A stretch of DNA of 64,000 nt from Spirochaetia bacterium. Lineage in GTDB: Bacteria > Spirochaetota > Spirochaetia > CADAEX01. Location of the stretch: positions 110-64,109 of the forward strand of contig JAVBQS010000110.1 of assembly GCA_031548835.1 (NCBI GenBank), read 5' to 3'. The notes under the pieces are model-generated. The model worked only from the letters and a program-made list of their open reading frames with translations. It searched no databases and was not told the DNA's origin. Position numbers and translations under genes: made by a program. Shown here in pieces: positions 7,627-34,758 of the stretch (position 1 is the stretch's first letter; every line of letters begins with the position of its first letter).

Positions 7627-7725
7627 TATATACAACATAACAAAAAAATATAATATTGCAGAAAAATAAAAATTCTGGATATCCTAAAGTAACAATCAAA
7701 TCCATCAAAAGATCGACAGGTTTAA

Positions 7726-8808: not shown

Positions 8809-8918
8809 AAGGGAATTCTTATCGTATAATAAAGAGAGTAACCACCATACATATTTATATGGGTTGCGATACCTCTATTTTAAAAAAGGTCTGACTAGAG
8901 ATTTTATTTCTTATCAGT

Positions 8919-10085: not shown

Positions 10086-10407
10086 AGTTATTAGAACTTA
10101 CTTTATAAATATTTTTCATAATTCTTAAAACTGATAAATAACCTTATTTTACATATTTATCAGTTTTAAATTATGTATTTAATCTAAATTTAGTATTAAA
10201 TTTTTACAATTATTTCTTTTTCATAAAAAATCTGCCAGAAATATATATACTAAAAGTTTTGAAATAAATGTAAATATTTAAAGAATATAGAATTATACTG
10301 GGCAAATTTGTAACAAAAATATAAAAAATATGTTTTTTTAATAAGATATTATTAAAAAAGAATACCGTAATATACAAAAAGATATAAAAATATTATAATA
10401 TTTTTCC

Positions 10408-11859: not shown

Positions 11860-11864
11860 TTGGT

Positions 11865-13951: not shown

Positions 13952-13969
13952 ATTATAGTTATAAAATAC

Positions 13970-15301
13970 ATGTATAAAAATATTTTCTTTAATCTTATAA
14001 TATTGATTTTTTTACTTTTTAGCCCTTTCTTAGCTTTTACAGATAATGGAGAAGAAAATACAGATACATCGGAAAAAGATAAACCATTATACAATGATAC
14101 TACTGATGAATCTTCTGAAGAAATTGCTCCTGAAAACCCGAATATTGATAGTATAATCGAGGTAGAAGAAGGTGACGAAGGGCTTCTTTTTGATTTATTT
14201 GATGAACCTACTGAAGATTTTGTTGTTAAAGATACAGATGTTGATCATAGAAAGCAGGTAGAACAAAATGAGCAAATGATTATAAAGCGTTCTTTTTCTG
14301 CACAGGGCGGCGGTTCTATTGGATGGATAGGGTTTCCGCAATTTGATGATTTATCAGATGGTTTTGATGTTGCATTAGGCTCAAGTGCAAAAGCGCTATT
14401 ATCTTTTTCTGCAAAACCAGATCCAATTTTTGGGGTTTCCGGAACTTTTTATACTGAAATTGACTATGATAATGGCAAAACAGATTGGTCTCAACTTGTT
14501 ATTGACCAACTTTATGGCGACTATATACTTCTTGATAAAGCTTTTTTCAGAGTTGGCAAATTTCCTATGAAGTGGGGGCAAGGCCGTATTTTTACGCCTG
14601 GAGATCTAATGGATGAAAGTGAGGATGGCGTTTCTGTTAGAGCTGCTTTTCCAACAGTTATGGATGGCCTTACTCTAGTTACTCTTGCAAATAAATATTA
14701 TCAAAATAACAGGAAAAAACAATTTGGAGAACATGATTTGGTAGCAGGAGGACTTATTGATAAAGTCTTTGGCAATCTTTATCTGTCTTTAGGGACAAGA
14801 TACCAATATTATGCAGGGTGGAATTTTCTAGGTTCATTAAAAATAGTTCTTTTTAAAATTGATTTTTTTACTGATATGGTTTTACTGGAAAATAAAACAG
14901 AAGATGATTATGATTTCGAAACTGTAGCAGGTTTTTTTAGAGAATGGGATAAATTTAAAATTTATGGCGAATATAGCTATGAAAAAGTACATGAAATAAG
15001 TACAAATGAATATGAATATGGCCATAATGTTGGCCTTGCTGCCGGGTATAAAAAAATATTTTCAACTTCTATAGATTTTGCTGTTGAATGGCGGCATACT
15101 TTTTATGATAATTCCGGCAGGGTTATTCCTGCAATATCATTTTATCCCTGGAAATTTGTTAGAATGAATTTTGGAGTCCCTATTCTTTATGGAGATGACA
15201 CATCAAGAAAGATTCTCGATGATGATGATGAATATGATTATATTCAGGAAAATAGAGGAATTTATTTTGTTTTTTCTATTAAACTTTCCTCTTCTTTTTA
15301 A
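13970..15301 (+). CDS. Putative outer-membrane beta-barrel protein with polyacidic N-terminal region
   Basis: Signal peptide. D/E-rich stretch (DESSEEIAPENP...EEGDEGLLFDLFDEPTEDF). Alternating amphipathic pattern. C-terminal '...LSSSF' (terminal Phe, an OMP sorting signal). Confidence 0.4.
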   Translation: MYKNIFFNLIILIFLLFSPFLAFTDNGEENTDTSEKDKPLYNDTTDESSEEIAPENPNIDSIIEVEEGDEGLLFDLFDEPTEDFVVKDTDVDHRKQVEQNEQMIIKRSFSAQGGGSIGWIGFPQFDDLSDGFDVALGSSAKALLSFSAKPDPIFGVSGTFYTEIDYDNGKTDWSQLVIDQLYGDYILLDKAFFRVGKFPMKWGQGRIFTPGDLMDESEDGVSVRAAFPTVMDGLTLVTLANKYYQNNRKKQFGEHDLVAGGLIDKVFGNLYLSLGTRYQYYAGWNFLGSLKIVLFKIDFFTDMVLLENKTEDDYDFETVAGFFREWDKFKIYGEYSYEKVHEISTNEYEYGHNVGLAAGYKKIFSTSIDFAVEWRHTFYDNSGRVIPAISFYPWKFVRMNFGVPILYGDDTSRKILDDDDEYDYIQENRGIYFVFSIKLSSSF

Positions 15302-15306
15302 AAGAA

Positions 15307-16011
15307 TTATTCCGACTGTTTATAATTTTCTGTTACAGAACCATCTTTAAGCCTGATAATGTGATCAGCAATAGAAAAAATATTCTGGTCATGTGTTGAA
15401 AATATAAAAGTAGTATTAAGCTCACTGTTTATCTGTTTCATAAGTTCTATTATTTCTTCGCCTGTTTTGCTGTCAAGATTTGCAGTAGGCTCATCCGCAA
15501 GAACTATTTGTGGTTTTGTTACAAGCGCTCTGGCAATTGCAACACGCTGCCTTTGTCCGCCTGATAACTCATTTGGCTTATGATTTTTCCATTTTGCAAG
15601 GCCAACTGCTGATATTAAGTGATTTATATATTCTGTTCTGCTTGATTTTTCTTCTTTTGTTATCTGCTTTTTTCCTATTAATAATGGAAATTCAATATTT
15701 TCATATACATTAAGAACAGGAAGAAGATTAAATGACTGGAAAATAAAACCTATTGTTGAATGCCTTAGTTCTGTTATTTTTTTATCAGATAATTTTCCTG
15801 TATCAATTCCATCTATTTTTACAATACCTTCTGTAGGCACATCTATGCAGCCAATCAGGTTTAATATGGTGGATTTTCCTGAGCCAGAGGGGCCGATTAT
15901 TGAAATAAAATCACCTTTTTCAATTTCAAAAGTGACTCCTTTGATCGCTACTACCTCTGTTTTTCCTAATGGATAGATTTTTTTAACATTTTCCAGAGTA
16001 ACGATTGCCAT
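15307..16011 (-). CDS. ABC transporter ATP-binding protein (LolD/MacB-type)
   Basis: Walker A 'GPSGSGKST'. Signature 'LSGGQRQRVAIARAL'. Walker B 'VLADEPT'. Convergent with the permease genes. Confidence 0.9.
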   Translation of the reverse strand: MAIVTLENVKKIYPLGKTEVVAIKGVTFEIEKGDFISIIGPSGSGKSTILNLIGCIDVPTEGIVKIDGIDTGKLSDKKITELRHSTIGFIFQSFNLLPVLNVYENIEFPLLIGKKQITKEEKSSRTEYINHLISAVGLAKWKNHKPNELSGGQRQRVAIARALVTKPQIVLADEPTANLDSKTGEEIIELMKQINSELNTTFIFSTHDQNIFSIADHIIRLKDGSVTENYKQSE

Positions 16012-17780: not shown

Positions 17781-20405
17781 ATGTTTGCTTTTTTACATTC
17801 ATTGTTTATATGGCCGTTTCAGGTGTTTATAGAAATTTTTTTTATGATTTTTATAAAAATTTTACGAAATAATATAGGACTAATAATAATATTGTTAAGT
17901 GTTGTTCTGAATCTTTTTTTTATTTATTTTTATAAACCTTATAATTTTTTTTGTGTTAGTGAAATAAAAAATCCATTGTTAAAAAATATAGCCAATGGCA
18001 GAAAAATTGGTGAAAAAATTTCAGTAATTTTTTCAATTATAAAACCATATATATTTTTAATTCTTTATTCTTTTCTTTTTATTGCTGCCTATGATTATTT
18101 TATCAATACAACATATCTTGAAAAATCTTCTTTTTTTATTATAAAAGATTTAAATCAGCCGGATCAATTAATAAAAATTGGAACAGTTACTTTAAATCTT
18201 TTTCCTGTTTTAATGCTTATCTTTGCTATTGTTTCTGTATTTATTCCATTTATTTTATATAAAAGAAAAATTATTATTTGCCGTGCAGCAGCTTTTATAA
18301 TTTTGTTTTTACTATTCTTTTTTATTTTATATAACAGTCCTTCCGGGTTAGCTCTGTTTTGGATTGTGACAGGATTATTTTTATTATTTATAAATATTTT
18401 AAGCTCTTTAAAAAGTTCTGGAAAAATATTTAAAGCTCTGATTGTTTTTTCATGCATTCTGTTTTTATTGTTTTTTATAAAACGGTTTAATAATTTTAAA
18501 ATTAAATATATGATTGCGTTAATTGTTATAGATATAACAGTAATGCTGATAGCTTTAAAAAAAGAAGCAATAAAAAAGTTTTTTGAAAACAGCTGTTTTT
18601 TATCCAGGGATAAAGATCTCTGTAGTTTATACAAATATTCATCAATAATTCTTTTTATTCTTACAGGTCTTGCTGTTCCGTTTCTTCTATTAGCATCATC
18701 TCCAACAGAATTTGATAATCCAACAGATATGATTATAAGAACAATTCTTCAGGCAGGATCAATTTTTATTGTATTTTCATTTCTTGTATGGACTTTTTCA
18801 ACATTGCCTATGCGTAGGTTTTTATCTCTTTTTTTATCATTTATAGCAGTTCTTGCTTTTTTCTGTTGTTTTATTTTTATGGGAAAATATGGCGCTATGG
18901 CTCCTGGTTTTGTTTTTGATAGCTGGGAACAGTTTGATAGATCTAAAGATTTAATAAAAAGCATATTGGCAGTTGTATTATCTTTTTTGACAATATTTAT
19001 CATTTTCCGTATTAATAAGTTGCGCTGGCTAAAAGACGGATTTATAATATTGTGCTTGTCTTTAGTTGTAATGTCAGGAGTTAATTTATTTACAATTATT
19101 AAAGAATATACTCTTTTGAATTCCCGCTCAGACAGGCTTGCAGATAAAGATTCTTCGAATGAAAAAAGATATAATATTTTTAATTTTTCAAAAACAGGAA
19201 AAAACATTTTTATTTTATTTCTTGATAAAGCTCCTGGCCATACTTTCTCTTATGCTTTGGATTTAAAACCTTCTTTAAAAAAAGATTTTGATGGTTTTGT
19301 CTGGTATCCTAATACAATATCTTTTGGCCCTAATACATTGTTTGGACTTCCCGCAATGATTGGTGGATATGAGTACACGCCTCTCCAGATAAATGAACGT
19401 AAAAATATATCTCTTAAAGATAAAGTAAATGAATCACTCAAAGTGCTGCCTGCTATTTTTGGAGAAGCAGGATATAATGTTGTTGTTACAGACCCTTCAT
19501 ATTCTAATTTGTCGTGGATACCTGACACAAGTATTTATGATAGCATGGAAAATGTAAAAGCGTATAACATTACAGGAATTTTCAGAAACAGGTTTAACAA
19601 AGAAAATACAGAAAGAAACAAAGGATTTTCCAAAATCTTTGATCATGATATTATGATGAGATTTTCAATATTCAGAATTCTGCCGCCCTTTTTAAGGCCA
19701 TTATTATATTACGATGGAAACTGGTTAAAACTGGTTGGATCTTCAAGCTATAACCAATCTATAAAACATTATCCAAACCTTCTTTACCTTGAGGATTTGT
19801 GTAGTATTAATGATGCCGGAAATAATTTTAATATTATGATGAATGAAGCAACGCACAACCCTGGCCCGTATGATAAAAATTTTGAGCTCACTGCGAAGCC
19901 TGTTGAATATTCTGATGATGATATAAAAAAATTCGGCTCCAGCGGTAATGTAAAATATATTTATGCATATACAGCAGCTCTTTCTGCTATTTCCGGATGG
20001 TTTGAATGGCTGAAAAAAGAAGAAATATATGATAATACAAAAATTATTATAGTAAGCGATCACGGATGGTCTTTTAATGAAAAAATTCTTGATTCCTGGG
20101 TTCAGGAAAATTATAACCCGCTATTATTAGTAAAAGATTTTAATTCCAGGGGCTCTATAGTAAGGTCTGATCAATTTATGACAAACGCAGATGTTCCGGC
20201 AATAGCAGTTAAATCTTTGGATAATCCAATTAATCCATATACAGGGGAAACTATTGACAGTTCTCCTAAAGATGAAGAAATTTTTGTTGCTAGCGGACAT
20301 TGGGCTGTTAAAAGCCAAAAAGAAGATTCTCTTGTTATCGGAACAATTTTTGAAGTAAAAAATAAAAATATATTTGATTCTGAAAATTGGGTAAGTATAA
20401 AGTAA
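17781..20405 (+). CDS. Large polytopic membrane protein with C-terminal alkaline-phosphatase-superfamily phosphotransferase domain (paralog 1)
   Basis: About 470 aa with more than 10 TM segments, then 'NFSKTGKNIFILFLDKAPGHT', 'YPNTISFGPNTLFGLPAM', 'MNEATHNP', 'IIIVSDHGW' and 'FMTNADVPAIA'. Homologous to 28637..30898 and 32521..34758. Confidence 0.6.
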   Translation: MFAFLHSLFIWPFQVFIEIFFMIFIKILRNNIGLIIILLSVVLNLFFIYFYKPYNFFCVSEIKNPLLKNIANGRKIGEKISVIFSIIKPYIFLILYSFLFIAAYDYFINTTYLEKSSFFIIKDLNQPDQLIKIGTVTLNLFPVLMLIFAIVSVFIPFILYKRKIIICRAAAFIILFLLFFFILYNSPSGLALFWIVTGLFLLFINILSSLKSSGKIFKALIVFSCILFLLFFIKRFNNFKIKYMIALIVIDITVMLIALKKEAIKKFFENSCFLSRDKDLCSLYKYSSIILFILTGLAVPFLLLASSPTEFDNPTDMIIRTILQAGSIFIVFSFLVWTFSTLPMRRFLSLFLSFIAVLAFFCCFIFMGKYGAMAPGFVFDSWEQFDRSKDLIKSILAVVLSFLTIFIIFRINKLRWLKDGFIILCLSLVVMSGVNLFTIIKEYTLLNSRSDRLADKDSSNEKRYNIFNFSKTGKNIFILFLDKAPGHTFSYALDLKPSLKKDFDGFVWYPNTISFGPNTLFGLPAMIGGYEYTPLQINERKNISLKDKVNESLKVLPAIFGEAGYNVVVTDPSYSNLSWIPDTSIYDSMENVKAYNITGIFRNRFNKENTERNKGFSKIFDHDIMMRFSIFRILPPFLRPLLYYDGNWLKLVGSSSYNQSIKHYPNLLYLEDLCSINDAGNNFNIMMNEATHNPGPYDKNFELTAKPVEYSDDDIKKFGSSGNVKYIYAYTAALSAISGWFEWLKKEEIYDNTKIIIVSDHGWSFNEKILDSWVQENYNPLLLVKDFNSRGSIVRSDQFMTNADVPAIAVKSLDNPINPYTGETIDSSPKDEEIFVASGHWAVKSQKEDSLVIGTIFEVKNKNIFDSENWVSIK

Positions 20406-20412
20406 TAATTAT

Positions 20413-21564
20413 ATGCATAGTAATAAAAAAATAGATAAAATAAAAAAAATATTTTCTGATAAAAATCTTATTCAGATACTTTTCTGGTACAGAATTGTTA
20501 TGGTCTTTGTAATGGATTATTTTGTGAAAGATCTTACAAGAAGAGGAGATACACCCAAATATCTTTTTGCAAATCCTTTTGATCTTTTTAATACTTATGG
20601 ATTTACTCTTTTTTTAGATGATACCAGGCTTGTCCAGTTTTTTGTAAGTTCCATACAGATGCTTTTAAGATATGAAATTTTAACACATATTGTTTTTTCA
20701 CTGCTTGCTTTTTATGGAATAAAACATTTTTTAAATGCTGTTCCTGAAAAAAATAATAAATATTATAAAATATTGATTTTAATGATGTTTCTTCCATCGT
20801 TTACTTTATGGTCTTCTGTTGCAGGAAAAGAGCCTGTTGTTGTTTTTGCAATAGGAATAATATCTGCAGAAGTTGTAAGGTTTTTTTCAGGCGAAAAATT
20901 CAGAATATCTTTCTTAATGATTATTTCTTTTTATTTGATTTTAATAGTTAAACAGCAATATATTCCTGCTGTTTTTCAATTGGCTCTGTATATGATATTA
21001 AGGAGAAAAACAAAACTCTCATGGAAAGCAGATCTAGCTGTTTTGTCAGCAGTACTTACGGTAAATTGTTTATTAATTTATTTTTTTAGAGATAAAATTG
21101 ATTCATTTATTTTGGACCGGCTTTTTGATATGTTTGATGGAGATAGTGCGCGCTCAACAAGGGAAAGAGTTTTTATAGAACAGTATGATTTTTTCAAAAA
21201 AATGCCTTATTTATTGCCGCTTGCTGTTTGGGGGCCTACCTGGAGCGAAACAAAAATCTCAATACTCCATCTTTATGTTTTTGTAGAAAATTTAATTTTG
21301 CTTGGCGTTTATATATATCTTATAAAAGATTTTTTTCTTAAAATTTTTAAGAAATTTAATATATATTATCAATGGCTTTTTATTTCTGTAATTGCAGTAG
21401 GTTGGCTTTTTTTTGCTCAATATATGCAGGGAGTAATGAATCCCGGAGCTGCAATAAGGTATAGAACAAATATATATCTTCTGGTAACAGCATTATGGTA
21501 TTCTGTTACATGTGTAAGAGAACAGATTTCTCCTGAAAATAACTGCTCCAAAGATATTGTTTAA
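20413..21564 (+). CDS. Polytopic membrane protein, possible Wzy/EpsG-like repeat-unit polymerase
   Basis: About 10 predicted TM helices. Its size and its position after the paralog 1 gene fit a polymerase/ligase role. No diagnostic motif was recognised. Confidence 0.3.
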   Translation: MHSNKKIDKIKKIFSDKNLIQILFWYRIVMVFVMDYFVKDLTRRGDTPKYLFANPFDLFNTYGFTLFLDDTRLVQFFVSSIQMLLRYEILTHIVFSLLAFYGIKHFLNAVPEKNNKYYKILILMMFLPSFTLWSSVAGKEPVVVFAIGIISAEVVRFFSGEKFRISFLMIISFYLILIVKQQYIPAVFQLALYMILRRKTKLSWKADLAVLSAVLTVNCLLIYFFRDKIDSFILDRLFDMFDGDSARSTRERVFIEQYDFFKKMPYLLPLAVWGPTWSETKISILHLYVFVENLILLGVYIYLIKDFFLKIFKKFNIYYQWLFISVIAVGWLFFAQYMQGVMNPGAAIRYRTNIYLLVTALWYSVTCVREQISPENNCSKDIV

Positions 21565-23545: not shown

Positions 23546-24487
23546 TTGAAAAAAATAGTTGTTACAGGCGGGGCAGGATTTATTGGTTCTCATTTATGTG
23601 AAAGGCTTTTAAAAGAAGGTAACGATGTTATATGTCTGGATAATTTTTTTACAGGCACTAAAAAAAACATAAGCCATCTTATTGGAAATCCTTTTTTTGA
23701 ATTAATGCGGCATGATGTAACTTTTCCTCTATATGTGGAAGTTGACCAGATATATAACCTGGCTTGCCCTGCAAGTCCTGTCCATTATCAATTTGATCCT
23801 GTGCAGACAACAAAAACATCGGTTCATGGAGCAATCAATATGCTTGGTCTTGCAAAAAGAACAAAAGCAAGAATATTGCAGGCTTCAACTTCTGAGGTAT
23901 ATGGAGATCCTGAAGTTCATCCTCAGAGGGAAGATTACTGGGGGCGGGTTAATCCAATTGGAATTAGAAGCTGTTATGATGAAGGAAAAAGATGTGCAGA
24001 AACTCTTTTTTTTGATTATTACAGGCAGCATAATGTTGATATAAAAGTTATCAGAATATTTAATACTTATGGGCCAAATATGCATCCTAATGATGGGCGG
24101 GTTGTAAGTAATTTTATTGTACAAGCTCTTAAAGGTAACGATATTACAATTTACGGAGATGGTAATCAGACAAGGTCTTTTTGTTATGTTGATGATCTTG
24201 TTGAAGGTTTAATTAAAATGATGAAAACAGAAAAAGATTTTACCGGACCTGTAAATCTTGGCAATCCAGGAGAGTTTACAATGAATCAGCTTGCAGAAAT
24301 TGTTATAAAATTGACAGGATCAAAATCAAAAATAAAATATTTTCCATTGCCGCAAGATGATCCGAGGCAGAGAAAACCAGATATTGCAAAAGCTCAGCAG
24401 TATTTGAACTGGAAACCGCTTGTTGAGCTAGAGGAAGGACTTGAAAAAACAATTCAATATTTTAAGAAAACTATTAATACAAAATGA
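23546..24487 (+). CDS. UDP-glucuronate decarboxylase (UDP-xylose synthase)
   Basis: Near-textbook UXS sequence: '[17 protein letters not shown]', '[27 protein letters not shown]', '[11 protein letters not shown]', '[11 protein letters not shown]'. TTG start after a GGAG SD. Confidence 0.9.
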
Positions 24488-25953
24488 GTAATTTTAGCAG
24501 TCAAAGTTTTTTTAATCTTGTTTTTGTTTATGCTGGTGTTTTTTTAGGGTTTATTAATACTATTTTAAAAACAAAAGTTTTTTCTACAGAAGAAATAGGA
24601 GTTGTTACTATAACAACAACACTTTCCATTTTTTTGGTATTTTTAATTTCTTATGGTTTTTTGTCAGGGACAAGACGGTTTTACAGCAGGTTTAAAGATA
24701 ATGTTGCTGAGAAAACAGGTTTTATTATAATAAATTTATTGGTTTCTCTTATCTTATACTGTTTTGCAAGTGTAATATTTTTTCTTTTAAAATCTTTTAT
24801 TCTGGAAAAATATAACAATCTATTGTTTGAAAGATATTTTAACGCTGTTTTTTTGTTTTTTATTGGCAATCTTTTAACAAGTTTTTTTCAATATATTTTT
24901 GAGAGTGAATACAGATCACTCCTGGGAAATATATACTATGATATAATTCATCGTATTCTTCATTTTTTAGTATTAATTTATATGCTTAATACTAATAGCA
25001 GTTTTTATTGGTATATATTCTTTCTTGTAATTTCTCTTTTTCTTAATATTTTATTTTATCTTGCAATGGGATTTAAGCTTATAAAGCTTGGGAAACCATC
25101 TTTCGCTATAATAACACGCAGTTTTATCATAGAATATTTAAAATACTGTTCTCTAACTTTTTCTTCTGGAATGACAGGTCTGGTAACTGAAAATATAGAC
25201 AAAGTTATGATTGGGGCATATCTTTCAATGTCAGATCTTGGAATATATTCTATTGTTGTTCAAATTGCTATGCTTATAAAAATAATGAAAAATGGATTTA
25301 TAAGAATAGCTTATCCTTCTATTGCTGAAGCATGGGAGAAAAAGGATAGTAAGAAAATTCAAAATATCTATAAGGAAAATTCTGCTATACAAATATTTTT
25401 GGGATCTTTCATTTTTGTTTTTATTTTTCCAAAACAAATAATGTCTGTACTTAGCCCTGAATATATTAAGGGCAGTAATATTCTTATTGTAATATCATTT
25501 GCTTATCTTTTAGATCTTTCAACAGGAATGAGTGAGGGTATAATATCATTGTCCAGATATTATTATTTTGATCTCTTTTTAAGAATACTTCTTGTGCTGC
25601 TTACAATAATTACAAATATAATAATGATTCCTTTTTGGGGTTTACTTGGAGCTGCTGCCGCAACTACTTTGACAATATTGATTTATAATATATTAAAATT
25701 AATGTTTATAAAAATAAAATTTTCAATGAACCCTTTTTCTTTTGATACAATAAAAATAATATTTTTAATTTTATTTATAGGATTTTGTTTCTTTTTTCTT
25801 TTAAAAAAAATCAATATAGAGTTAAATATTTTTAATATAATATTTTTATTTATAATTGTTTTTATTTTATATGTTATAATTGGAAAAAATATTATAAAGA
25901 TAAGTTTTTTGAACAAAATTAAAATATGTAATAAAATTAAGAGAAAAAAATAA
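24484..25953 (+). CDS. wzx: Wzx-like polysaccharide flippase (MOP superfamily)
   Basis: 489 aa with about 12-14 TM helices. Position in the cluster fits a flippase. ATGA overlap with the upstream gene. Confidence 0.65.
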
Positions 25954-25962
25954 AAATTATAT

Positions 25963-26512
25963 AGTAACCTTCCCCATGGTCTGCATGGAATTGCCCAAGA
26001 TGGTAATCCAATAAAAGATACAAATAATATTAGCTCCTCTGCAACAGCATATTATTCAGCAAAGAAATTCACAGATGTAATGGGGAACTGGATAAAATGG
26101 ATGAAAAATAATAATGTTTATGACAATACTATGATAATTATTGTATCTGATCATGGAAATACTTTAAACGATAATGATATTAAGCTACCAGAACAACTAG
26201 ATGATGTAAAAAATCTTAGAAATATATCCAGTGTACAATCTCTTTTGCTTGTAAAAAGGTTTGGGAGCAGCGGGGGAGTAAAAATTGGTCATGCAAGAGT
26301 AAGTCCTACTGATGCACCTGTAATATTATAAGCAGAAACAGGAATTGATTTCCCGTTTGAATACGATTTATATTCTAGTAATAAACGTATTTATAGTGAT
26401 AATAAGGGTCATTTTCTAAAAGTAGATACCATAAAGTACAATTCATACAAAGTAAATGGTACAATATTTGATCCTGATTCATGGGGTATTTATGATAATA
26501 AAAAACAATAGG
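25963..26512 (+). pseudogene. 5'-truncated, disrupted remnant of an alkaline-phosphatase-superfamily membrane transferase paralog (C-terminal ~180 codons)
   Basis: The translation 'HGLHGIAQDG...AYYSAKKFTDVMGNWIKWMKNNNVYDNTMIIIVSDHGNT...LLVKRFGSSGG...' aligns with the C-termini of 28637..30898 and 32521..34758. It begins 10 bp after the wzx stop with no N-terminal part. There is a stop at 26331 and then a frame change to '...DPDSWGIYDNKKQ*'. Confidence 0.75.
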
Positions 26513-26674: not shown

Positions 26675-27943
26675 ATGAAACTGTATTTAACTTTAATATT
26701 TTTTGCTGTAACTGTATCACCTGCTTTTTGTTATATAGATCCAGGAACAGGCAGCATGCTTCTTTATGCTATTATTGGCATAGGCGCTGCATTGCTCTAT
26801 GCGTTTAAAGGATATTTTTACAAGCTTAGAGGCAAAATTACAGGCAAGGGATATAATCTTGATTCAGATTTATCTGAATTTGATTTTGTATTTTATTCTG
26901 AAAGTAAAATATATTGGAATGTATTTAGCCCTGTGCTTGAAAACCTTGATAAATCAGGTAAAAAATGTATCTATTTGACCTCAAGCGAGGATGATCCGGG
27001 GTTGGCCTATAAATCAGACAATATTAAATCAAAATATATTGGAGAAGGAGTAAGGGCTGCATCATATCTTAACAATATAAAAGCAGATATTGTAACAATG
27101 ACAACACCGCAGCTTGACGTGCTTACTCTTAAAAAATCAAAAAAAGTTAATCATTATTCCTATATTTTTCATGCTCCAACAGATATTGGAATCTATGGTA
27201 AATATGCATTTGATAATTTTGATTCAATGTTCTGCGTAGGAAAACATCAGATAACTCATATCAAAGAATTTGAAGAAAAAAGAAAAACAAATAAGAAAAA
27301 GCTGTTTGAAACAGGCTGCACATACTATGATGTTTTATTAAAGAAAGAACAGCGGGCAGAAAAGAATGAAAAACCTGTAATTCTGGTTGCTCCTACATGG
27401 AATAAAAACAGCCTTCTTGCAAGATTTGGCTTTAATATTTTAAAACCTCTTTTAACAGGAAAATATAAAGTTATATTAAGGCCACATCCCCAAATGTATA
27501 TTTCCCAGAAAAAACTTATTGAAGAGATAAAAAAAGAAAGCAGCAGTTATCCAGATCTTGTCTGGGATGAAAAGCCATCAGGCGAGGATTCAATGAATGA
27601 ATCAGATATATTGATATCAGATTTGTCCGGAATAATTTTTGACTATTCATTTGTTTTTAAAAAACCTGTAATTTCAATTGATGCTCCTGTTATTGAAACA
27701 GGCCTCGAGCTTGAAGATATGAAAAAAGATGAATTATGGGAACTTAATATTAGAAGCAAACTTGGAAAACTTGTTAAAGAGCAGGATATTTCTAATCTTC
27801 CTGTATATGTTGATGAAATGCTTTTATCATTCAGCAAGGAAAATATTGAAAATATAATAAAAGAAAATATTTACAACTTCGGCAATGCAGGGCCTGTTGC
27901 TGCTAGGCAGTTGGCTGAACTAAAGGAAAATTTGAAAAAATAA
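26675..27943 (+). CDS. TagB/TagF-like CDP-glycerol glycerophosphotransferase family protein
   Basis: N-terminal membrane anchor. 'ILVAPTWNKNS' (TagF 'PTWR'-like) and 'VILRPHPQMY' (catalytic His region). C-terminal 'DILISDLSGIIFDYSFVFKKPVI'. Confidence 0.6.
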   Translation: MKLYLTLIFFAVTVSPAFCYIDPGTGSMLLYAIIGIGAALLYAFKGYFYKLRGKITGKGYNLDSDLSEFDFVFYSESKIYWNVFSPVLENLDKSGKKCIYLTSSEDDPGLAYKSDNIKSKYIGEGVRAASYLNNIKADIVTMTTPQLDVLTLKKSKKVNHYSYIFHAPTDIGIYGKYAFDNFDSMFCVGKHQITHIKEFEEKRKTNKKKLFETGCTYYDVLLKKEQRAEKNEKPVILVAPTWNKNSLLARFGFNILKPLLTGKYKVILRPHPQMYISQKKLIEEIKKESSSYPDLVWDEKPSGEDSMNESDILISDLSGIIFDYSFVFKKPVISIDAPVIETGLELEDMKKDELWELNIRSKLGKLVKEQDISNLPVYVDEMLLSFSKENIENIIKENIYNFGNAGPVAARQLAELKENLKK

Positions 27944-28632
27944 TGTCAAAAATTCTTTACTATATTTTTATATTTCCGCTTGAAAGCGGAATGAAATTTA
28001 TCTTTCTTGGCGCTTATAATCTTTTTAATAATTACGGCATATCAATAATAATGATGAGTCTTGCTGTCAATATTGTATTGCTCCCGCTATATTATCTTGC
28101 AGAACAGTGGCAGGGTAAAGAACGGGAGATAAAAAAGAAAATGCAGCCTGAACTTGATAAAATAAAAAATGCTTTTAAGGGAGAAGAACGTTACTACTAT
28201 ACAAAAGCTGTATATAAGAGATTTCATTATCATCCAATAAATTCAATACGTGTAAGTTTTGGTTTTTTGATTCAGGTTCCTTTTTTTATTGCAGCATACC
28301 ATTTTATGTCACATTATGAAGGTATAAGCGGTATAAGTTTTTTATTTATAAAAGATTTATCTCTGCCAGACAAAATGCTACAGTTCAAACAGCTTAGTAT
28401 AAATATTCTTCCTTTTATTATGACATTTATAAATATTTTGTCTGCATATATTTATACAAAAAACTTAAACAGAAGCGATAAAATTCAGTTATGGCTTTTA
28501 GCTTTTCTATTTTTAGTTCTTTTATATAATGCTCCTTCTGCTCTTGTTTTATACTGGACGCTAAATAATATTTTTTCTCTAATTAAAAATAGTTTAAGTG
28601 TATATGTTTTTAAATTTAAATATCTTACATAA
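27943..28632 (+). CDS. YidC/Oxa1-family membrane insertase-like protein (short form)
   Basis: Aligns with the YidC core: 'ISIIMMSLAVNIVLLPLYYLAEQ' (TM), 'MQPELDKIKNAFKGE' (the LQPK...K helix), 'FGFLIQVPFFIAAYHFM' (like 'LLIQMPIFLALYYML') and 'APSALVLYWTLNNIFSLI' (like 'PSGLVLYYIVSNLVTI'). The conserved Arg of the first core TM helix is Asn here. Confidence 0.7.
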   Translation: MSKILYYIFIFPLESGMKFIFLGAYNLFNNYGISIIMMSLAVNIVLLPLYYLAEQWQGKEREIKKKMQPELDKIKNAFKGEERYYYTKAVYKRFHYHPINSIRVSFGFLIQVPFFIAAYHFMSHYEGISGISFLFIKDLSLPDKMLQFKQLSINILPFIMTFINILSAYIYTKNLNRSDKIQLWLLAFLFLVLLYNAPSALVLYWTLNNIFSLIKNSLSVYVFKFKYLT

Positions 28633-28636
28633 AATT

Positions 28637-30898
28637 ATGAATAATAAAAAAATATACATACGATTTAACCAAATTTTTTCTAAGAAGATAGAGAAAAATG
28701 CAGTCTATATGTTGACCGCATTTGTTATTTATTTTCTTATCTATTTTATTTATTATAAATATTCAGATACCAGAAATCTTTCTTTTGTATTAATAATTAT
28801 TGGATTTTCAAGTCTTAATATTTTGCTGTATAATTATCTAAATAAGAAAATAAAAAAATCTATTATAGAAAAGATTATAATAGTTATTAGTTTTTTAGCA
28901 TTAGCCGGATTGATTATCTTATTTTTCGACTGGTTATTTAAAATTAATATATTTGCTGATAAAATATATTTTAGACGTTATATTCTTGCCTTATTTTTTT
29001 TACAGACAATGGTTCTCTATCTTCCTTTTTTAAAAGATTTTGTAAAAAGTACAAATGAGAACGATAATATAAATATTAACTCTTCTTTATTTTATTTTGC
29101 ATTGTTATATATACTTTTTGTTATTTTTTTATATACTCCAACAGCTGTTTTTTCAACAGCTCCGGATGATTTTGATATTTCTTATATTAATATTATTCTT
29201 CCTGCAGCAGCAATTATTGCTATTTTATTTTTCTTGTTTGCAATTATATATAAGCTGATTGGCTGTAAATATAAAAATTTTTTTACTGTTTTAATTACAA
29301 TTTTTTCTGTATTATGCTTTGTTTATTCATATCTGTATCCTGGACAATATGGTTCGCTTAACTCTTTTCTTCTTTCTAATTCAGAAAATTTATATGGCAA
29401 TGTTTACAATTATCTTCTGGAATATTTTATATTATTAATAATTATCTGTTTTGTTGTTGTTTCAGTAAAAAAATATAATCATATAGCAAGAAATGTTTTA
29501 ATACTGCTTAATATTGTTGCTTTTTTACAATTTTCTTACTCAACTTTCTCAATTTATTCATCTAAACGTAATAATTTATTGAACACCCAAAAAACGGAAA
29601 ATTCTATTATTCTGCCTTCGTATAACGAAGAATTAATGAGTTTTTCCAAAACAGGAAAAAATATAATTGTTCTAATGCTTGATATGTTTTCAGGCGGGTA
29701 TATGGAAGAAATATTACAAGAAGATTCTGAGATAGAAAAAATTTATGAAGGATTTATATGGTATCCTAATACTTTGTCTATTTCTTATGTTACAAGCAGC
29801 AGTATTCCTTCAATGCAGGCTGGCTGGAAATATACGCCTGATGAGATTAATCGTACAAATAAAAAAAATACACTAGTTAAAATTATTGGCGATTCCTACA
29901 AAATATTACCAGAAATTCTATCTAAATATAATTACAAATCTGCTTATATTGACCCGGATTATTGCTATACATATCGCGGAGATATTTCAGAATTAAATAA
30001 GGCAGGAATTCTTGGCGGATTTAATAAAGATTATGTTGAATACTGGAAGAATAAAAATATGAAAGAATATAATAATATTTTTCCTGAAAAAAATAGAAAT
30101 AATGAATTAAAACTTCTTTTAATGGTAAGTATTTTTAAAGCTTCTCCAATTCTTGTAAAGCCTATAATATATGATAATGGTAATTGGATAGTAATTAAAA
30201 GCAGCGACCGTGAAAATTCTGCTTTTATGTCAAAGATAGAATATTGGTCTTTTATTGATTCAATGCCGCAGATATCAAATATAAATGAACAGAAGAATAC
30301 TTATAAATTTATAAAAAACAGTATTGCACATGATCCTTTCTCTTTAAGTAAGGATGGTAAATTAATTCTTGGTTTTCCTGATCCTGATGCAAAAGATAAT
30401 TTCCATGGAAAAAATGCTTACTATAGTGCAAGAGGAAGTCTTATCGCTATAGGAAGATGGCTTTCCTGGCTTAAAGAATCAGGAATATATGATAATACAA
30501 AAATAATAATAGTTTCTGATCACGGAAATGATCTTACTCAAGATCCCATGATGAAAAAAGATTTTAATGTAGATGGTATTTCTGGAGAAGAGTTTAATAG
30601 AATTCATGCTCTTTTGATGGTTAAAGATTTTAATAAAAAAGGTTTTCTAACAATTGATAATAGATTTATGAGCAATGCAGATGTTCCTGCAATTGTGTGT
30701 TCAGATTTTGATAAGAAAGGCGATATTATCTCAGACCCAACAAAACAGTTAATTGAGAATCGCGTGCTTAAAACCATGCGGGCTGAAAGCTGGAAATGGC
30801 ATTATATTTCTAAACATACAAAATTTAAATTTAAATGGAATTATGAAGTAAAAAATGATATGTTTGAATCACAAAATTGGGAAAAAGTTAATTACTGA
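28637..30898 (+). CDS. Large polytopic membrane protein with C-terminal alkaline-phosphatase-superfamily phosphotransferase domain (paralog 2)
   Basis: Start MNNKKIYIRF at 28637; the ORF is open from 28598. Motifs: 'FSKTGKNIIVLMLDMFSGGYM', 'YPNTLSISYVTSSSIPSMQAG', 'IAHDP', 'KIIIVSDHGND', 'FMSNADVPAIVC'. Confidence 0.6.
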   Translation: MNNKKIYIRFNQIFSKKIEKNAVYMLTAFVIYFLIYFIYYKYSDTRNLSFVLIIIGFSSLNILLYNYLNKKIKKSIIEKIIIVISFLALAGLIILFFDWLFKINIFADKIYFRRYILALFFLQTMVLYLPFLKDFVKSTNENDNININSSLFYFALLYILFVIFLYTPTAVFSTAPDDFDISYINIILPAAAIIAILFFLFAIIYKLIGCKYKNFFTVLITIFSVLCFVYSYLYPGQYGSLNSFLLSNSENLYGNVYNYLLEYFILLIIICFVVVSVKKYNHIARNVLILLNIVAFLQFSYSTFSIYSSKRNNLLNTQKTENSIILPSYNEELMSFSKTGKNIIVLMLDMFSGGYMEEILQEDSEIEKIYEGFIWYPNTLSISYVTSSSIPSMQAGWKYTPDEINRTNKKNTLVKIIGDSYKILPEILSKYNYKSAYIDPDYCYTYRGDISELNKAGILGGFNKDYVEYWKNKNMKEYNNIFPEKNRNNELKLLLMVSIFKASPILVKPIIYDNGNWIVIKSSDRENSAFMSKIEYWSFIDSMPQISNINEQKNTYKFIKNSIAHDPFSLSKDGKLILGFPDPDAKDNFHGKNAYYSARGSLIAIGRWLSWLKESGIYDNTKIIIVSDHGNDLTQDPMMKKDFNVDGISGEEFNRIHALLMVKDFNKKGFLTIDNRFMSNADVPAIVCSDFDKKGDIISDPTKQLIENRVLKTMRAESWKWHYISKHTKFKFKWNYEVKNDMFESQNWEKVNY

Positions 30899-30921: not shown

Positions 30922-31929
30922 TTGAAAATGAAAATAAATATTAAAAAATTTAAAAAACATTTATCAATTGCTCTTGCAAATATAAGAGTGCTATTTATTA
31001 TTTTTTTCCTGCAAAAAAAAGCATGGAAAAAAAGTGATGTTGATTTTGTATGGAATAGAAAATTTGCAGAGATTTGCAGTTGTTATCCTTTCTTTTTCCC
31101 ATATAAGATTGTCAGCAAAAATATATTTAAAATAGAACGGCGAATTATTGATTATTTTTCATATAGACAAATCAACAAAAAAATAAAAGAAAATAATCTG
31201 GTATATGTTTCTCTTGATAGTATGGATTATTTTAAAAGAAGCATATTAAAAAAAATCAATAGCAGCTTTATTTTAATAACAGGAGATTCTGATTTAACAC
31301 CATCTGAACACAAAGAGTTGCTGGATAATAAAAATATTCTCCATTGGTTTGCCCAGAATTGTGACATAAAGCATCCAAAGATTTCCAGTTTACCAATAGG
31401 CCTTGATTACCACACAATTGCCACATATTCCCATTGGGGAAGCAAGCGCATTTCTCCAAAAGAACAGGAACAGGAATTACTTGATATTAGAAAGACTGAT
31501 ATAAAAAAAGAACTTAAAATATTTACAAATTTTCATTTAAATATCAATTCTCCTGCAAGGGAAAGACTTTATAAAGAACTTAAAGGAAGCAGTTTATTTT
31601 TTTTCCAGGAAAAACCTTTATCCCGAACTGAAACATGGAAGATTCAAAGAAAATATAACTTTGTTTTTTCTCCTGCCGGGGTTGGAATGGATTGTCACAG
31701 GACATGGGAAGCTTTAATTCTTGGGTGTATACCTATTGTAGAAACAAGTTTTCTTGATAATCTTTACTCGGAATTTCCAATCGTAGTTATAAAAAATCCT
31801 AATGATATAACTGAAGAAAATTTATTAAAATGGTCTATTCTATATAAAAATAGTTTTGATAATAATCTTGAATTAAAGTTAAAAAATAGATATTGGATTG
31901 AGAAAATCAAAAGCACACAGAAAAAATAA
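30922..31929 (+). CDS. Hypothetical protein, possible glycosyltransferase (unassigned family)
   Basis: One N-terminal TM. Acidic 'LITGDSDL' motif and C-terminal 'SPAGVGMDCHRTWEALILGCIPIV' resemble a sugar-transferase C-terminus. A xylosyltransferase would be expected given the UDP-Xyl branch. This is speculative. Confidence 0.3.
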   Translation: MKMKINIKKFKKHLSIALANIRVLFIIFFLQKKAWKKSDVDFVWNRKFAEICSCYPFFFPYKIVSKNIFKIERRIIDYFSYRQINKKIKENNLVYVSLDSMDYFKRSILKKINSSFILITGDSDLTPSEHKELLDNKNILHWFAQNCDIKHPKISSLPIGLDYHTIATYSHWGSKRISPKEQEQELLDIRKTDIKKELKIFTNFHLNINSPARERLYKELKGSSLFFFQEKPLSRTETWKIQRKYNFVFSPAGVGMDCHRTWEALILGCIPIVETSFLDNLYSEFPIVVIKNPNDITEENLLKWSILYKNSFDNNLELKLKNRYWIEKIKSTQKK

Positions 31930-32520: not shown

Positions 32521-34758
32521 GTGTTAAAATTTTTAAAAAAATATCAATCATCTTTTGTTTTATCTATTTTATTTTTTGCATTTTATATGCTCATTTTTTA
32601 TAAAATAGATCAATATTCCGGCAGCCGATTTAGTTATTATATTTTTGCATGCGGCAGTTTATTAATTTTGGATATTTGTTTGTTTATAAATATATTTTTT
32701 AGATATCGTGACAAAAAGATTAATAATTTTTTCTTTTATGTCACAACTTTAATTTTTTTTATAATTATTTTATTAACAACAGATTGGATATTTAAGTTAA
32801 ATATTTTTACATCAAATTATAAATTTAAAATAATAATATTGTTTTTTCAGCTATTATATATTTTTATTATTTTGGGATATTTTATTGGAAAAAGTATTTT
32901 TAACGCTGAACTTTTTCCAAAGAGTGAAAAAATAAAAATTACTCAAATAATAAGTGTTGTTTTATATATCAGTTTGATTCTTTTTCTTATGACACCTTTG
33001 AGATTATATGCAACATCGCCCGGAGAAGTTGAAATAGCTTTTATTAGTCTTTTAAAAGCATGTGTTATTAATTTTGTTATATCTTTAATTATCCTTTTTT
33101 TTGTATTTTTTATATTTCCAGGATTTTTAAAAAAGTATTTAACAGTGTTTTTATATTTTACAGCAGGGTTCATCTTTTTTTACATATTTATTTTTCCTGC
33201 AAATTATGGAGCTCTTGATAATTTTGTGTTGAAAAATGCGGATAATCTTTATGGCGTATTTTATAAAAATGTAATAGAAGCATTTTTTATAATTTTGTTA
33301 TGGCATGTAGTTTTATATTTTATTAATCATAAAAAAATAAAAATTCTGGCAATTGCTTTTTTTATACTTTCTGCAGTTGCTTCAATAGAATCTGTTGTTG
33401 TTTTTGCTAAAGGAAAAAGTTTGCTTTCTGTAAATAATACAAATAATACAAATAATACAACTGGAGACCTTCTACCTGCTTACAATTATAAAATGATGGG
33501 ATATTCCAGAACAGGAAAAAATATTGTTGTTATTCTTTTTGATATGATGACAGGCGGTGATATTCCGAGAATTTTTAAAGAACATCCTGAATTGGCAGAG
33601 ACATATAATGGATTTATATGGTATCCAAACACGCTTACTGTTGGCGACAATACAGCAACAAGTATGGCGTCAATGTATGGTGGGAAAATATATTCGCCGG
33701 CAGAAATCAATAAGAATAATTTTAACAAATCACTTCTTGAGATTATTACAGAAAGTTATGAAGTATTGCCTAATTTACTAAAAGAAAAAAATTATGTAAC
33801 AGCTTATACAAATCCGGAATATTATTTTTCTCCGCGTGGAGATGTTGATGTTTTAAATAAAAAAGGAATTATAGCAGGTTTTAATAAAGATTATGTTCCA
33901 TATTGGAAAAATATAAATCGAGAAAAGGAAGAATATGTTGCCAAATTTGATACGACATCAATCCGTCTTCTTACAATGGTTTCGTTATTTAAAGCTTCTC
34001 CTGTTTTATTAAAATCAATTATTTATGATAATGGAGATTGGCTGATTATCGAAAAAGATGAGATAAAAAATAAAGCATATAATTTTGCTCTTGAATCCTG
34101 GGCTTTTCTCGATCTTATGAAAGATATATCAAATACAAATGAAACTCAAAATACTTTTAAATATTTTCATAATTATATTACACATGAACCATATGCAATG
34201 AGCAAAGAAGGTGTTTTACAAAAAGAAGAATATCCTGACCCATCTGCGGGCGATAATATTCATGGGGATAATGCATATTACAGTGCAAAAGCTGCTATTT
34301 TAGCAACTGCAAGGTGGATTGATTGGCTGAAAAAAGAAAAAATTTATGATAATACAATGATAATTCTTGTTTCTGATCACGGGCACCCATTTACTGAAAG
34401 TCCTATGATAACTCCTGATTTTAAAAATCAGGATATTACAAGCAATATTTTTACAAGATCTCAGGCATTTTTAATGGTTAAAAAATTTAATAATGATAAA
34501 GATTTTAAAACAGATTGGAGGTTCATGAGTAATGGAGATATTCCCTCAATTATTTGTGAAGCTGCAGGTATTTATAATGAAAAAATTGGCAAAGATCCGA
34601 CAACAGGAGAACCATTGCAAAATAGAGTTCTTGATACTTTTCGTACAAAAAGTTGGCGGTGGGAACATCTTGTCCGGAGTTCTAAATTTGATGTGGTATG
34701 GCACTATCAGGTAAAAGACTCTATATTTAATGATAAGAATTGGACTAAAATTAAATAA
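32521..34758 (+). CDS. Large polytopic membrane protein with C-terminal alkaline-phosphatase-superfamily phosphotransferase domain (paralog 3)
   Basis: GTG start. Motifs: 'YSRTGKNIVVILFDMMTGGDIP', 'YPNTLTVGDNTATSMASMYGG' (EptA-like Thr nucleophile context), 'ITHEP', 'MIILVSDHGHP', 'FMSNGDIPSII'. Contains an in-frame 9-bp x3 tandem repeat. Confidence 0.6.
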   Translation: MLKFLKKYQSSFVLSILFFAFYMLIFYKIDQYSGSRFSYYIFACGSLLILDICLFINIFFRYRDKKINNFFFYVTTLIFFIIILLTTDWIFKLNIFTSNYKFKIIILFFQLLYIFIILGYFIGKSIFNAELFPKSEKIKITQIISVVLYISLILFLMTPLRLYATSPGEVEIAFISLLKACVINFVISLIILFFVFFIFPGFLKKYLTVFLYFTAGFIFFYIFIFPANYGALDNFVLKNADNLYGVFYKNVIEAFFIILLWHVVLYFINHKKIKILAIAFFILSAVASIESVVVFAKGKSLLSVNNTNNTNNTTGDLLPAYNYKMMGYSRTGKNIVVILFDMMTGGDIPRIFKEHPELAETYNGFIWYPNTLTVGDNTATSMASMYGGKIYSPAEINKNNFNKSLLEIITESYEVLPNLLKEKNYVTAYTNPEYYFSPRGDVDVLNKKGIIAGFNKDYVPYWKNINREKEEYVAKFDTTSIRLLTMVSLFKASPVLLKSIIYDNGDWLIIEKDEIKNKAYNFALESWAFLDLMKDISNTNETQNTFKYFHNYITHEPYAMSKEGVLQKEEYPDPSAGDNIHGDNAYYSAKAAILATARWIDWLKKEKIYDNTMIILVSDHGHPFTESPMITPDFKNQDITSNIFTRSQAFLMVKKFNNDKDFKTDWRFMSNGDIPSIICEAAGIYNEKIGKDPTTGEPLQNRVLDTFRTKSWRWEHLVRSSKFDVVWHYQVKDSIFNDKNWTKIK
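33434..33460 (+). repeat. In-frame tandem repeat (aataataca)x3 encoding NNT-NNT-NNT
   Basis: Exact 9-bp triplication inside paralog 3, in the linker between the membrane and catalytic domains. Confidence 0.8.

Follow-up and report, generated by a model that had tools for sequence, protein, structure and literature searches.

A YidC-fold protein without the groove arginine in a spirochaetal surface-glycan locus, and the widespread subfamily to which it belongs

Introduction

An open reading frame (ORF) at positions 27943-28632 of a 64,000-nucleotide stretch of DNA from a Spirochaetia bacterium (contig JAVBQS010000110.1; the whole stretch is referred to here as the window) encodes a short YidC-like protein within a surface-glycan locus. 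YidC/Oxa1 proteins are usually viewed as universal protein insertases in which the charge of the membrane groove is strictly conserved. What, then, does a YidC-like protein do among glycan genes? An earlier note on this DNA, made from the sequence alone, had proposed a cargo-specific insertase for the unusually large polytopic enzymes encoded nearby (designated paralogs 1 to 3 here), and had pointed out that the conserved arginine of the first core helix was replaced by asparagine. We followed up that proposal with profile searches, structure prediction, and a survey of related loci. The window gene is an ordinary member of its subfamily, and it is the subfamily itself that merits attention: it is a distinct, widespread set of YidC-fold proteins that lack the groove arginine and possess a strongly conserved cytoplasmic hairpin.

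Results

The ORF begins with ATG and ends with TAA (28630-28632), and its position and 229-amino acid (aa) product were reproduced exactly as previously claimed. The protein scored 87.9 bits against PF02096 (60KD_IMP; cut-off 35), covering profile positions 1-158 of 163, and 95.5 bits against TIGR03592 (cut-off 84.3). Both matches uphold the alignment to the YidC core that had been proposed from short motifs, and the motifs quoted at that time (KKMQPELDKIK, FLIQVPFFIAAY, and PSALVLYWTLNN) were found in the protein. An AlphaFold2 (AF2) model, for which an alignment of 40 relatives was used as input, had a mean pLDDT of 88.4 and a pTM of 0.80, with helices at residues 31-77, 80-93, 98-124, 156-174, 177-194, and 199-228. 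The model has the five-helix core of the superfamily, and its helices 1 and 2 are joined by a coiled-coil hairpin on the cytoplasmic side. When it was compared to the PDB with Foldseek, the best match was Bacillus halodurans YidC (3wo6; TM 0.70/0.75); 6al2 had a TM of 0.69, and E. coli YidC, T. maritima YidC, and human OXA1L were also matched. By profile and by fold, the ORF encodes a YidC-fold membrane protein of the YidC/Oxa1/Alb3 superfamily. It shares its core, its helical hairpin, and the LIQxPxF and PSGLxLYxxxxN motifs with the canonical members (E. coli YidC, B. halodurans YidC2, and B. subtilis SpoIIIJ); unlike them, it has some 8 extra residues, predicted to form a beta-hairpin, inserted before the NxLP helix.

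The replacement of the arginine was supported by two alignments. A phmmer alignment to PDB entry 3wo6 set "slavNivllpl" of the 229-aa protein opposite "tiliRlallpl", and the family profile put the Asn43 column on R366 of E. coli YidC ("FIVRGIMYPL"). Asn43 therefore lies in the column of the groove arginine of both B. halodurans and E. coli YidC, and the positive residue described as strictly conserved in the superfamily (PMC8920935) is absent from the 229-aa protein. The substitution noticed earlier is thus real; however, it is not peculiar to this gene, but is the rule across a large subfamily.

A scan of species-representative genomes yielded 493 relatives, and 77 loci were kept for the counts of architecture and context given below. 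The subfamily alignment contained 353 related modules, and the arginine column could be read in 339. That column held N in 180 modules, S in 83, T in 67, Q in 6, and G in 3; neither R nor K occurred (0/339). Residues Q111, P113, D143, N154, P157, M160, T161, N164, Y195, W205, N208, and N209 were near-invariant in the 353 modules, as were the hairpin residues Y50, Q57, E60, R61, G80, Y96, and P98. W205 of the 229-aa protein aligned with Y517 of E. coli YidC. The window protein carries all of the subfamily motifs: N, S, or T at the arginine column; LPLYxxAExWQxxER ... KGExRY ... YHP; NxLPxxMTxxN; and LLYNSPSGLVLYWTxNN. Its context is also that of the subfamily, in which the module is fused to or adjoins a polytopic enzyme, or adjoins a TagF-like gene; the order in the window is TagF-like, YidC-like, paralog 2. 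Compared to canonical YidC, then, the subfamily has an uncharged N, S, or T in place of the positive groove residue, a near-invariant hairpin, no P1 domain, no rnpA/yidD context, and, usually, a fused enzyme.

An exhaustive search of 1.84 billion representatives returned 1156 clusters at E <= 1e-30, and almost all of the best 150 of these were 600-1100 aa in length. Spirochaetia of termite gut, rumen, and mouth, Treponema among them, made up most of the hosts of the 493 relatives. Desulfovibrionaceae, Campylobacterales, Photobacterium, Neptunomonas, Verrucomicrobia, SAR324, and further groups were also represented, giving a distribution that is patchy across phyla. The nearest relatives of the 229-aa protein were found in metagenome-assembled genomes of termite-gut Spirochaetaceae, at 85% and 81% identity.

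Scores of the 229-aa protein against the NCBIfam equivalog models of housekeeping YidC were all far under cut-off, with the best at 76.5 bits against a cut-off of 891. The protein starts at the YidC core, without an N-terminal helix or P1 domain, and its neighbors are TagF-like and LtaS-like genes. None of the marks of a housekeeping bacterial YidC, namely a PRK01318-type equivalog score, a P1 domain, and the rnpA-yidD-yidC-jag context, were found. A scan of the window with the family hidden Markov model (HMM) gave the ORF as the best match (E = 8e-112) and also detected a YidC-like module at the N-terminus of paralog 1 (E = 3e-54; 24.9 bits against PF02096, which is sub-threshold). The fused module had been overlooked in the earlier note, and the window therefore contains two YidC-like modules. 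Two or three tandem copies were present in 27 of the 77 loci. Because equivalog scores are low, the P1 domain and rnpA/yidD context are absent, two modules lie in the window, and relatives carry two to three tandem copies, the 229-aa protein is dedicated and not housekeeping in character.

The 77 loci contained 109 YidC-like ORFs, of which 98 were fused to a homologue of the window paralogs, 4 were cut by contig ends, and 7 were separate. The question of whether YidC-like genes recur beside homologous transferases in other genomes thus received a strongly positive answer. The fusions consist of the YidC-like module, approximately 7-9 membrane helices, and a periplasmic LtaS/EptA-type phosphotransferase domain. 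Residues 1-216 of the ORF product and residues 25-751 of paralog 2 were colinear with residues 7-222 and 257-979, respectively, of a 980-aa fusion in a related locus (L005), with the break falling in the linker. The window gene is accordingly the split counterpart of the N-terminal module of the large fusion proteins, and because the two form one polypeptide in most relatives, the 229-aa protein is tied functionally to the large paralogs. Relatives at 85%, 81%, and 69% identity show this split as well, and the gene downstream of the split has its own ribosome-binding site and start in two loci (L001 and L002). Among the nearest 120 clusters (90% identity), 83 were separate proteins, 208-245 aa long, that end at a conserved natural C-terminus, several of them encoded on long contigs. 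Because these 83 are genuine stand-alone proteins, the fused form was no longer taken so firmly as the rule, nor the separate form as an infrequent product of fission. Of the three regions of the fusions, the YidC-like module is the best conserved, with a mean pairwise identity of 52.8%; the catalytic domain has 37.1% and the polytopic region 25.5%.

One fusion has a different C-terminal part. An 822-aa protein of Neptunomonas qingdaonensis (L019, 5873-8338) has an N-terminal YidC-like module followed by a region without detectable kinship to the window paralogs, and a TagF-like gene lies directly upstream.

Paralogs 1, 2, and 3 are enzymes of one type. The YidC-like module of paralog 1 (17781-18410) is degenerate: the cytoplasmic hairpin is deleted, Q111, P113, N164, and N208/N209 are lost, and identity to the other modules is 29%, compared to a mean of 53% among those. 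This degeneracy suggests that the stand-alone copy took over in this lineage. Paralog 2 had been described as having more than 10 transmembrane segments; hydropathy instead gives approximately 9 membrane helices, after which comes a large domain on the periplasmic side. Paralog 3, which has 9 predicted membrane helices, is 36% identical to paralog 2 (blastp E = 7e-162). A decayed remnant of a fourth paralog, between the Wzx-like and TagF-like genes, matched residues 575-700 of paralog 2 by tblastn (33% identity, E = 3e-16) and had weak matches to PF00884 and PF01663.

The number of helices before the catalytic domain is odd by hydropathy, which places the domain in the periplasm. Residues D482, T519, H692, D760, and H761 (paralog 1 numbering) were invariant in 51 fusions, a set that follows the metal-site and threonine-nucleophile pattern of LtaS/EptA-type phosphotransferases. 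Single-sequence searches of paralogs 1 and 2 against the PDB gave only marginal sulfatase matches, and profile and structure searches were needed. When an AF2 model of paralog 1 (pLDDT 86.1, pTM 0.78) was searched with Foldseek, the top matches were full-length PbgA/YejM, full-length MCR-1, and LtaP/LtaS, followed by sulfatases. From their residues and the predicted model, the partner paralogs possess the metal Asp, Thr nucleophile, His, Asp-His pair, and extracytoplasmic sulfatase fold of LtaS/EptA-type enzymes.

The most constant neighbor of the YidC-like module is a TagF-like CDP/CMP-dependent transferase. In well-flanked loci (at least 3 kb on each side; n = 30), a TagF-like gene was directly adjacent in 20 and within 6 kb in 22, and one was present in 11 of the 12 stand-alone contexts examined. 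One TagF-like gene accompanies one to three transferase paralogs. Genes for phosphonate synthesis recur as well: within 10 kb, phosphoenolpyruvate (PEP) mutase was found in 14/77 loci (among L002-L078), a LicC/PntC-like nucleotidyltransferase in 17/77, and a TagD-like gene in 10/77. A compact six-gene module in Azospirillum rugosum (L082) consists of genes for PEP mutase, an aminotransferase, a nucleotidyltransferase, the YidC-like protein, a paralog-like protein, and the TagF-like protein. Two five-gene operons (L085 and L088) encode the YidC-like and TagF-like proteins with a cytidylyltransferase-PEP mutase, phosphonopyruvate decarboxylase, and an iron alcohol dehydrogenase. No other candidate translocator was found inside these three minimal modules. 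In L084, L085, and L088, no paralog-like polytopic protein was found with the YidC-like, TagF-like, and phosphonate genes, and the polytopic enzyme was therefore rejected as an obligatory partner. Altogether, the YidC-like/TagF-like set, with or without the LtaS-like enzyme, was embedded in phosphonate clusters in L081, L082, L084, L085, and L088 as well as in 14 loci; the surrounding genes encode PEP mutase, phosphonopyruvate decarboxylase, 2-aminoethylphosphonate (AEP) transaminase or iron alcohol dehydrogenase, and a cytidylyltransferase.

No phosphonate biosynthesis gene, PEP mutase included, was found in the window. The activating enzyme there is TagD-like; its best NCBIfam match was TIGR01518 (glycerol-3-phosphate cytidylyltransferase), at 76 bits and under the cut-off of 165, and it is the probable supplier of the CDP-activated head group. 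The YidC-like and TagF-like proteins are thus a recurrent module in surface-glycan loci, fed by a TagD-like enzyme in the window and by CMP-phosphonate genes elsewhere.

Two of the surveyed loci contain further unusual genes. An MprF-type flippase-domain protein (LPG_synthase_TM) and a weakly PMT_2-like polytopic protein adjoin the phosphonate, YidC-like, and TagF-like genes of L084 (538-3225); a 597-aa protein after the TagF-like gene of that locus matches no family and is no homologue of the paralogs. In L086, a 1009-aa protein with nucleotidyltransferase, PPDK_N, and PEP-utilizer domains (7657-10686) directly follows a stand-alone YidC-like gene, and the next genes encode a glutamine amidotransferase, another nucleotidyltransferase, and a PMT_2 (GT-C-like) protein. 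This gene set may point to a different activated head group.

The gene junctions in the window are as tight as had been claimed, in support of translational coupling between the TagB/F-like gene and paralog 2. The last A of the TagF-like stop codon TAA (27941-27943) is the first base of the YidC-like ATG at 27943 (ATAATG). Paralog 2 could start at GTG 28598, a 35-nt overlap with the YidC-like gene, or at ATG 28637, 4 nt past its stop. The ATG, which gives a protein of 753 aa, is more probably the start than the GTG of the longest ORF because it better fits the alignment to the fusion proteins. No Shine-Dalgarno sequence is visible upstream of the paralog 2 start (28598-28640), and coupling by re-initiation is therefore likely.

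Discussion

The reading that we tentatively favor, as possible rather than probable, is that the YidC-like protein is a permanent subunit of a module for tailoring with phospho- or phosphono-head groups and moves a lipid-linked intermediate across the membrane. At the cytoplasmic face, the TagF-like enzyme would attach the activated head group (probably glycerol phosphate in the present case) to a lipid of the membrane or to a lipid-linked carrier. The YidC-like subunit, rather than acting once per molecule as an insertase does, would then shift the head group to the outer leaflet via its polar, uncharged groove, and in the periplasm the Thr-nucleophile domains of paralogs 2, 3, and 1 would pass it to different positions on the glycan acceptor. 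In the window, a single stand-alone copy is well preserved, and it would act in trans for all three paralogs. A permanent subunit would explain why the module stays part of the enzyme and is its most conserved portion. Translocation would also explain the minimal modules in which there is no other translocator and the operons that have the YidC-like gene but no polytopic client; the pairing of one TagF-like gene with one to three transferases is as expected if one donor supplies several acceptor-specific enzymes. Purified E. coli YidC scrambles glycerophospholipids in vitro (PMC11047089). That precedent, together with the logic of gene context, is what suggests a scramblase or flippase role for the YidC-like protein.

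Several points weigh against this reading. The YidC groove is shut toward the periplasm in crystal structures, and LtaS/EptA-type enzymes normally use ordinary phospholipids, for which no dedicated flippase is needed. The pathway logic is drawn from gene neighborhoods only, and a TagF-like gene is absent next door in about a third of the well-flanked loci, with none within 6 kb in L087. Handling of the lipid donor could fall to the polytopic domain of the partner enzyme, and the TagF-like enzyme might simply modify an undecaprenyl pyrophosphate-linked repeat unit that is exported by the Wzx-like flippase (24484-25953). The subfamily also retains the helix-packing and groove motifs of true insertases (LIQxPxF and PSGLxLYW). 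Finally, an uncharged polar residue at the arginine position is compatible with insertion when the Y517 equivalent is aromatic (Chen et al. 2022, PMC8920935), and that residue is the invariant W205 here.

The alternative closest to the earlier proposal is a dedicated insertase or assembly chaperone for the polytopic LtaS/EptA-like enzyme, acting in cis when fused and in trans when split (here on paralogs 2 and 3), which we regard as less likely than the favored reading but still plausible. It would fit the true YidC fold with its insertase core motifs, the physical or genetic linkage to polytopic enzymes in most genomes, and the role of YidC as a chaperone for the folding of polytopic proteins. 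In E. coli YidC, the groove charge is dispensable when position 517 has an aromatic or hydrophilic residue (Chen et al. 2022, PMC8920935), and the equivalent here is the invariant Trp; the same paper reports that the arginine is essential in S. mutans YidC2, which has a Trp at the 517 equivalent (PMC8920935). Top conservation within the fusion, and so highly conserved a cytoplasmic hairpin, would be surprising for a helper used once per molecule, and fusion leaves the module without a free C-terminal tail. In L084, L085, and L088 the YidC-like protein is paired with a soluble TagF-like protein and phosphonate genes, with no paralog-like cargo, and paralog 3, like LtaS/EptA/PbgA relatives in general, exists without such a module. 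Sec would be needed in any case for the large periplasmic domain. The idea of a cargo-specific insertase was therefore right that the protein is dedicated and linked to the large paralogs, but as stated it is unsupported in view of the permanent fusion, the high conservation, the TagF-like neighbor, and the cargo-free operons. A scaffold or anchor, with no transport at all, is an unlikely explanation, in which the conserved cytoplasmic hairpin would dock the peripheral TagF-like transferase at the membrane and couple it to the periplasmic enzyme. The TagF-like gene is the most constant neighbor and is often translationally coupled, the hairpin is near-invariant in the subfamily, and it has been lost in the paralog 1 module yet kept in the stand-alone copy beside the TagF-like gene. 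Left unexplained by docking are the equal conservation of intramembrane polar residues (N43/S/T, Q111, T161, N164, N208, and N209) and how, in a minimal module like L082, the head group would get to the active site in the periplasm.

Two further explanations deny the protein a special role. That it is a decaying, non-functional fragment of a disrupted fusion gene, or the product of an assembly frameshift, is very improbable. Another decayed paralog fragment does lie in the locus (25966-26346), and two surveyed loci (L042 and L073) look frameshifted; but the ORF is intact and is the top family-HMM match in the window, the split is kept in relatives down to 69% identity with an independent ribosome-binding site and start downstream in L001 and L002, and most of the nearest clusters are stand-alone proteins that share a natural C-terminus. 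That it is a housekeeping YidC which happens to sit in a polysaccharide operon is, on indirect evidence, harder still to credit. The domain-level models PF02096 and TIGR03592 are passed, but all equivalog models are far under cut-off, and the N-terminal membrane helix and P1 domain of other diderms are missing along with the "strictly conserved" positive residue (PMC8920935). The window also contains another module of this subfamily, relatives have up to 3 tandem copies per locus, and the patchy subfamily is tied to accessory glycan and phosphonate loci. T. denticola, moreover, carries two fusions beside a TagF-like gene in addition to a separately annotated YidC, TDE2396 (PMC5643300).

Several known systems resemble parts of this arrangement. 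The accessory YidC2/YqjG proteins of Gram-positive bacteria are likewise second, short YidC-type proteins (about 230-300 aa) beside a housekeeping one. Unlike the subfamily, these paralogs keep the groove arginine, serve general membrane-protein biogenesis, and are neither fused to nor co-located with glycan-tailoring enzymes; in S. mutans YidC2 the arginine is R73 (PMC8920935). The partner paralogs resemble LtaS, GacH, EptA/MCR-1, OpgB, and PbgA/YejM in having a polytopic N-terminus and an extracytoplasmic sulfatase fold with the Asp/Thr/His/Asp-His site. The kinship is very distant, with only the "VSDHG" region aligning by sequence, and the partner enzymes differ in that they have 7-9 helices where the known members have 5, bear a YidC-like module at the N-terminus, and are paired with a TagF-like gene. 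To our knowledge, none of these features has been described for known members of the LtaS/EptA family.

In gene logic, the arrangement resembles the GtrB/GtrA/GtrC-type, ArnC/ArnEF/ArnT, and CsbB/GtcA/YfhO systems, which consist of a cytoplasmic carrier loader, a small membrane translocator, and one or more large polytopic enzymes acting in the periplasm. In such three-component systems, one donor synthase serves several acceptor-specific transferases. The likeness is by analogy, with no homologous parts: the loader here is TagF-like and not GT2, the would-be translocator has a YidC fold and not a GtrA/SMR-type one, the transferase is an alkaline-phosphatase-superfamily phosphotransferase and not a GT-C enzyme, and the lipid intermediate is hypothetical. 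The phosphonyl tailoring (Pnt) clusters described by Rice et al. (2019, PMC6697681), with PEP mutase, Ppd, AEP transaminase, and PntC, are of the kind in which the same YidC-like/TagF-like/LtaS-like set lies in other genomes, whereas the window has no PEP mutase and a TagD-like activating enzyme. Those authors called the steps beyond CMP-AEP enigmatic, and phosphonate-cluster papers including theirs (PMC6697681) made no mention of YidC or TagF-like genes.

The subfamily departs from the usual view of YidC in that the groove charge is lost, the module is welded to or beside glycan-tailoring enzymes, it outconserves the catalytic domain, and it recurs in phosphonate and glycerophosphate clusters. 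Taken together, this suggests that the YidC fold has a second job. If that job is to move lipid-linked head groups, the subfamily would provide a physiological, dedicated example for lipid scrambling by insertases, as well as testable candidates for the late steps of surface phosphonate or glycerol-phosphate addition in oral and gut Treponema, Desulfovibrionaceae, Campylobacterales, and marine Gammaproteobacteria. In its widest form, the proposal is that the YidC fold has been recruited, in more than 1000 clusters from many phyla, as the translocation step of an unrecognized three-part pathway (TagF-like loader, YidC-like flippase, LtaS/EptA-like transferase) that decorates surface glycans or lipids with glycerol phosphate or phosphonates. 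We consider this possible but short of probable; it would fill the late phosphonyl-tailoring steps and would be the first case of a natural YidC-family protein with lipid as its primary substrate. If the module is instead a client-specific insertase fused to its client, that would still be a new arrangement for the YidC family. A search of the literature, a YidC phylogenomics paper included, found no description of the fusion, of the arginine-less subfamily, or of its TagF-like/phosphonate link. In public databases, the 900-aa fusions of T. denticola, T. primitia, Gracilinema caldarium, and Breznakiella homolactica are annotated as "YidC/Oxa1 family membrane protein insertase", a label that masks both the enzyme domain and the pathway.

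Other Features of the Locus

Positions 1 to approximately 45,000 of the window make up a single large surface-glycan locus on the plus strand, the main features of which are listed in Table 1. After the Wzx-type flippase, the genes follow in the order TagF-like, YidC-like, paralog 2, 335-aa protein, and paralog 3.

Table 1. Features assigned in the surface-glycan locus, in order along the window
Feature	Position	Strand	Evidence
Several GT2, GT4, and GT25 glycosyltransferases	early part of the locus	+	profile scans
Polyprenyl-phosphate sugar phosphotransferase	16448	+	profile scans
Paralog 1, 874 aa: degenerate YidC-like module (~aa 1-210), polytopic region, periplasmic LtaS/EptA/PbgA-like domain	17781-20405	+	PF02096 24.9 bits, PF00884
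UDP-glucose dehydrogenase	between paralog 1 and the TagD-like gene	+	profile scans
TagD-like cytidylyltransferase, 154 aa	23078-23542	+	PF01467 76.9 bits
Epimerase	between the TagD-like gene and the Wzx-type flippase	+	profile scans
Wzx-type flippase	24484-25953	+	profile scans
Decayed remnant of a fourth paralog (catalytic-domain piece), including an 83-aa ORF at 26080-26331	25966-26346	+	tblastn
TagB/TagF-like CDP-glycerol-type glycerophosphotransferase, 422 aa	26675-27943	+	PF04464 54.2 bits
YidC-like stand-alone protein: five-helix YidC core, conserved cytoplasmic hairpin	27943-28632	+	PF02096, TIGR03592, AF2, Foldseek
Paralog 2 (from its more probable start): ~9 membrane helices, periplasmic alkaline-phosphatase-superfamily (LtaS/EptA-like) domain	28637-30898	+	PF00884, hydropathy
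335-aa protein, no assigned family, between paralogs 2 and 3	30922-31929	+	weak RXYLT1_C/GT47-like match only
Paralog 3, 745 aa: same enzyme type, without YidC-like module	32521-34758	+	PF00884 38.5 bits
ADP-heptose pathway and two heptosyltransferases	3' of paralog 3	+	profile scans

The 335-aa protein has a homologue in L001 (E = 9e-123), where it comes after both sulfatase-domain paralogs. A 383-aa protein without a confident family (20413-21564) also adjoins the paralogs, and homologues of both the 383-aa and the 335-aa protein occur in L001, L002, and L005.

Mid-locus, positions 10408-16011 encode two FtsX/MacB-type permeases, a LolA-like protein, a 443-aa protein without a family, and an ABC ATPase on the opposite strand; from its gene content, this group may be an export system for the product of the locus. 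A CotH-kinase-family protein is encoded at the edge of the glycan locus (43841-44974).

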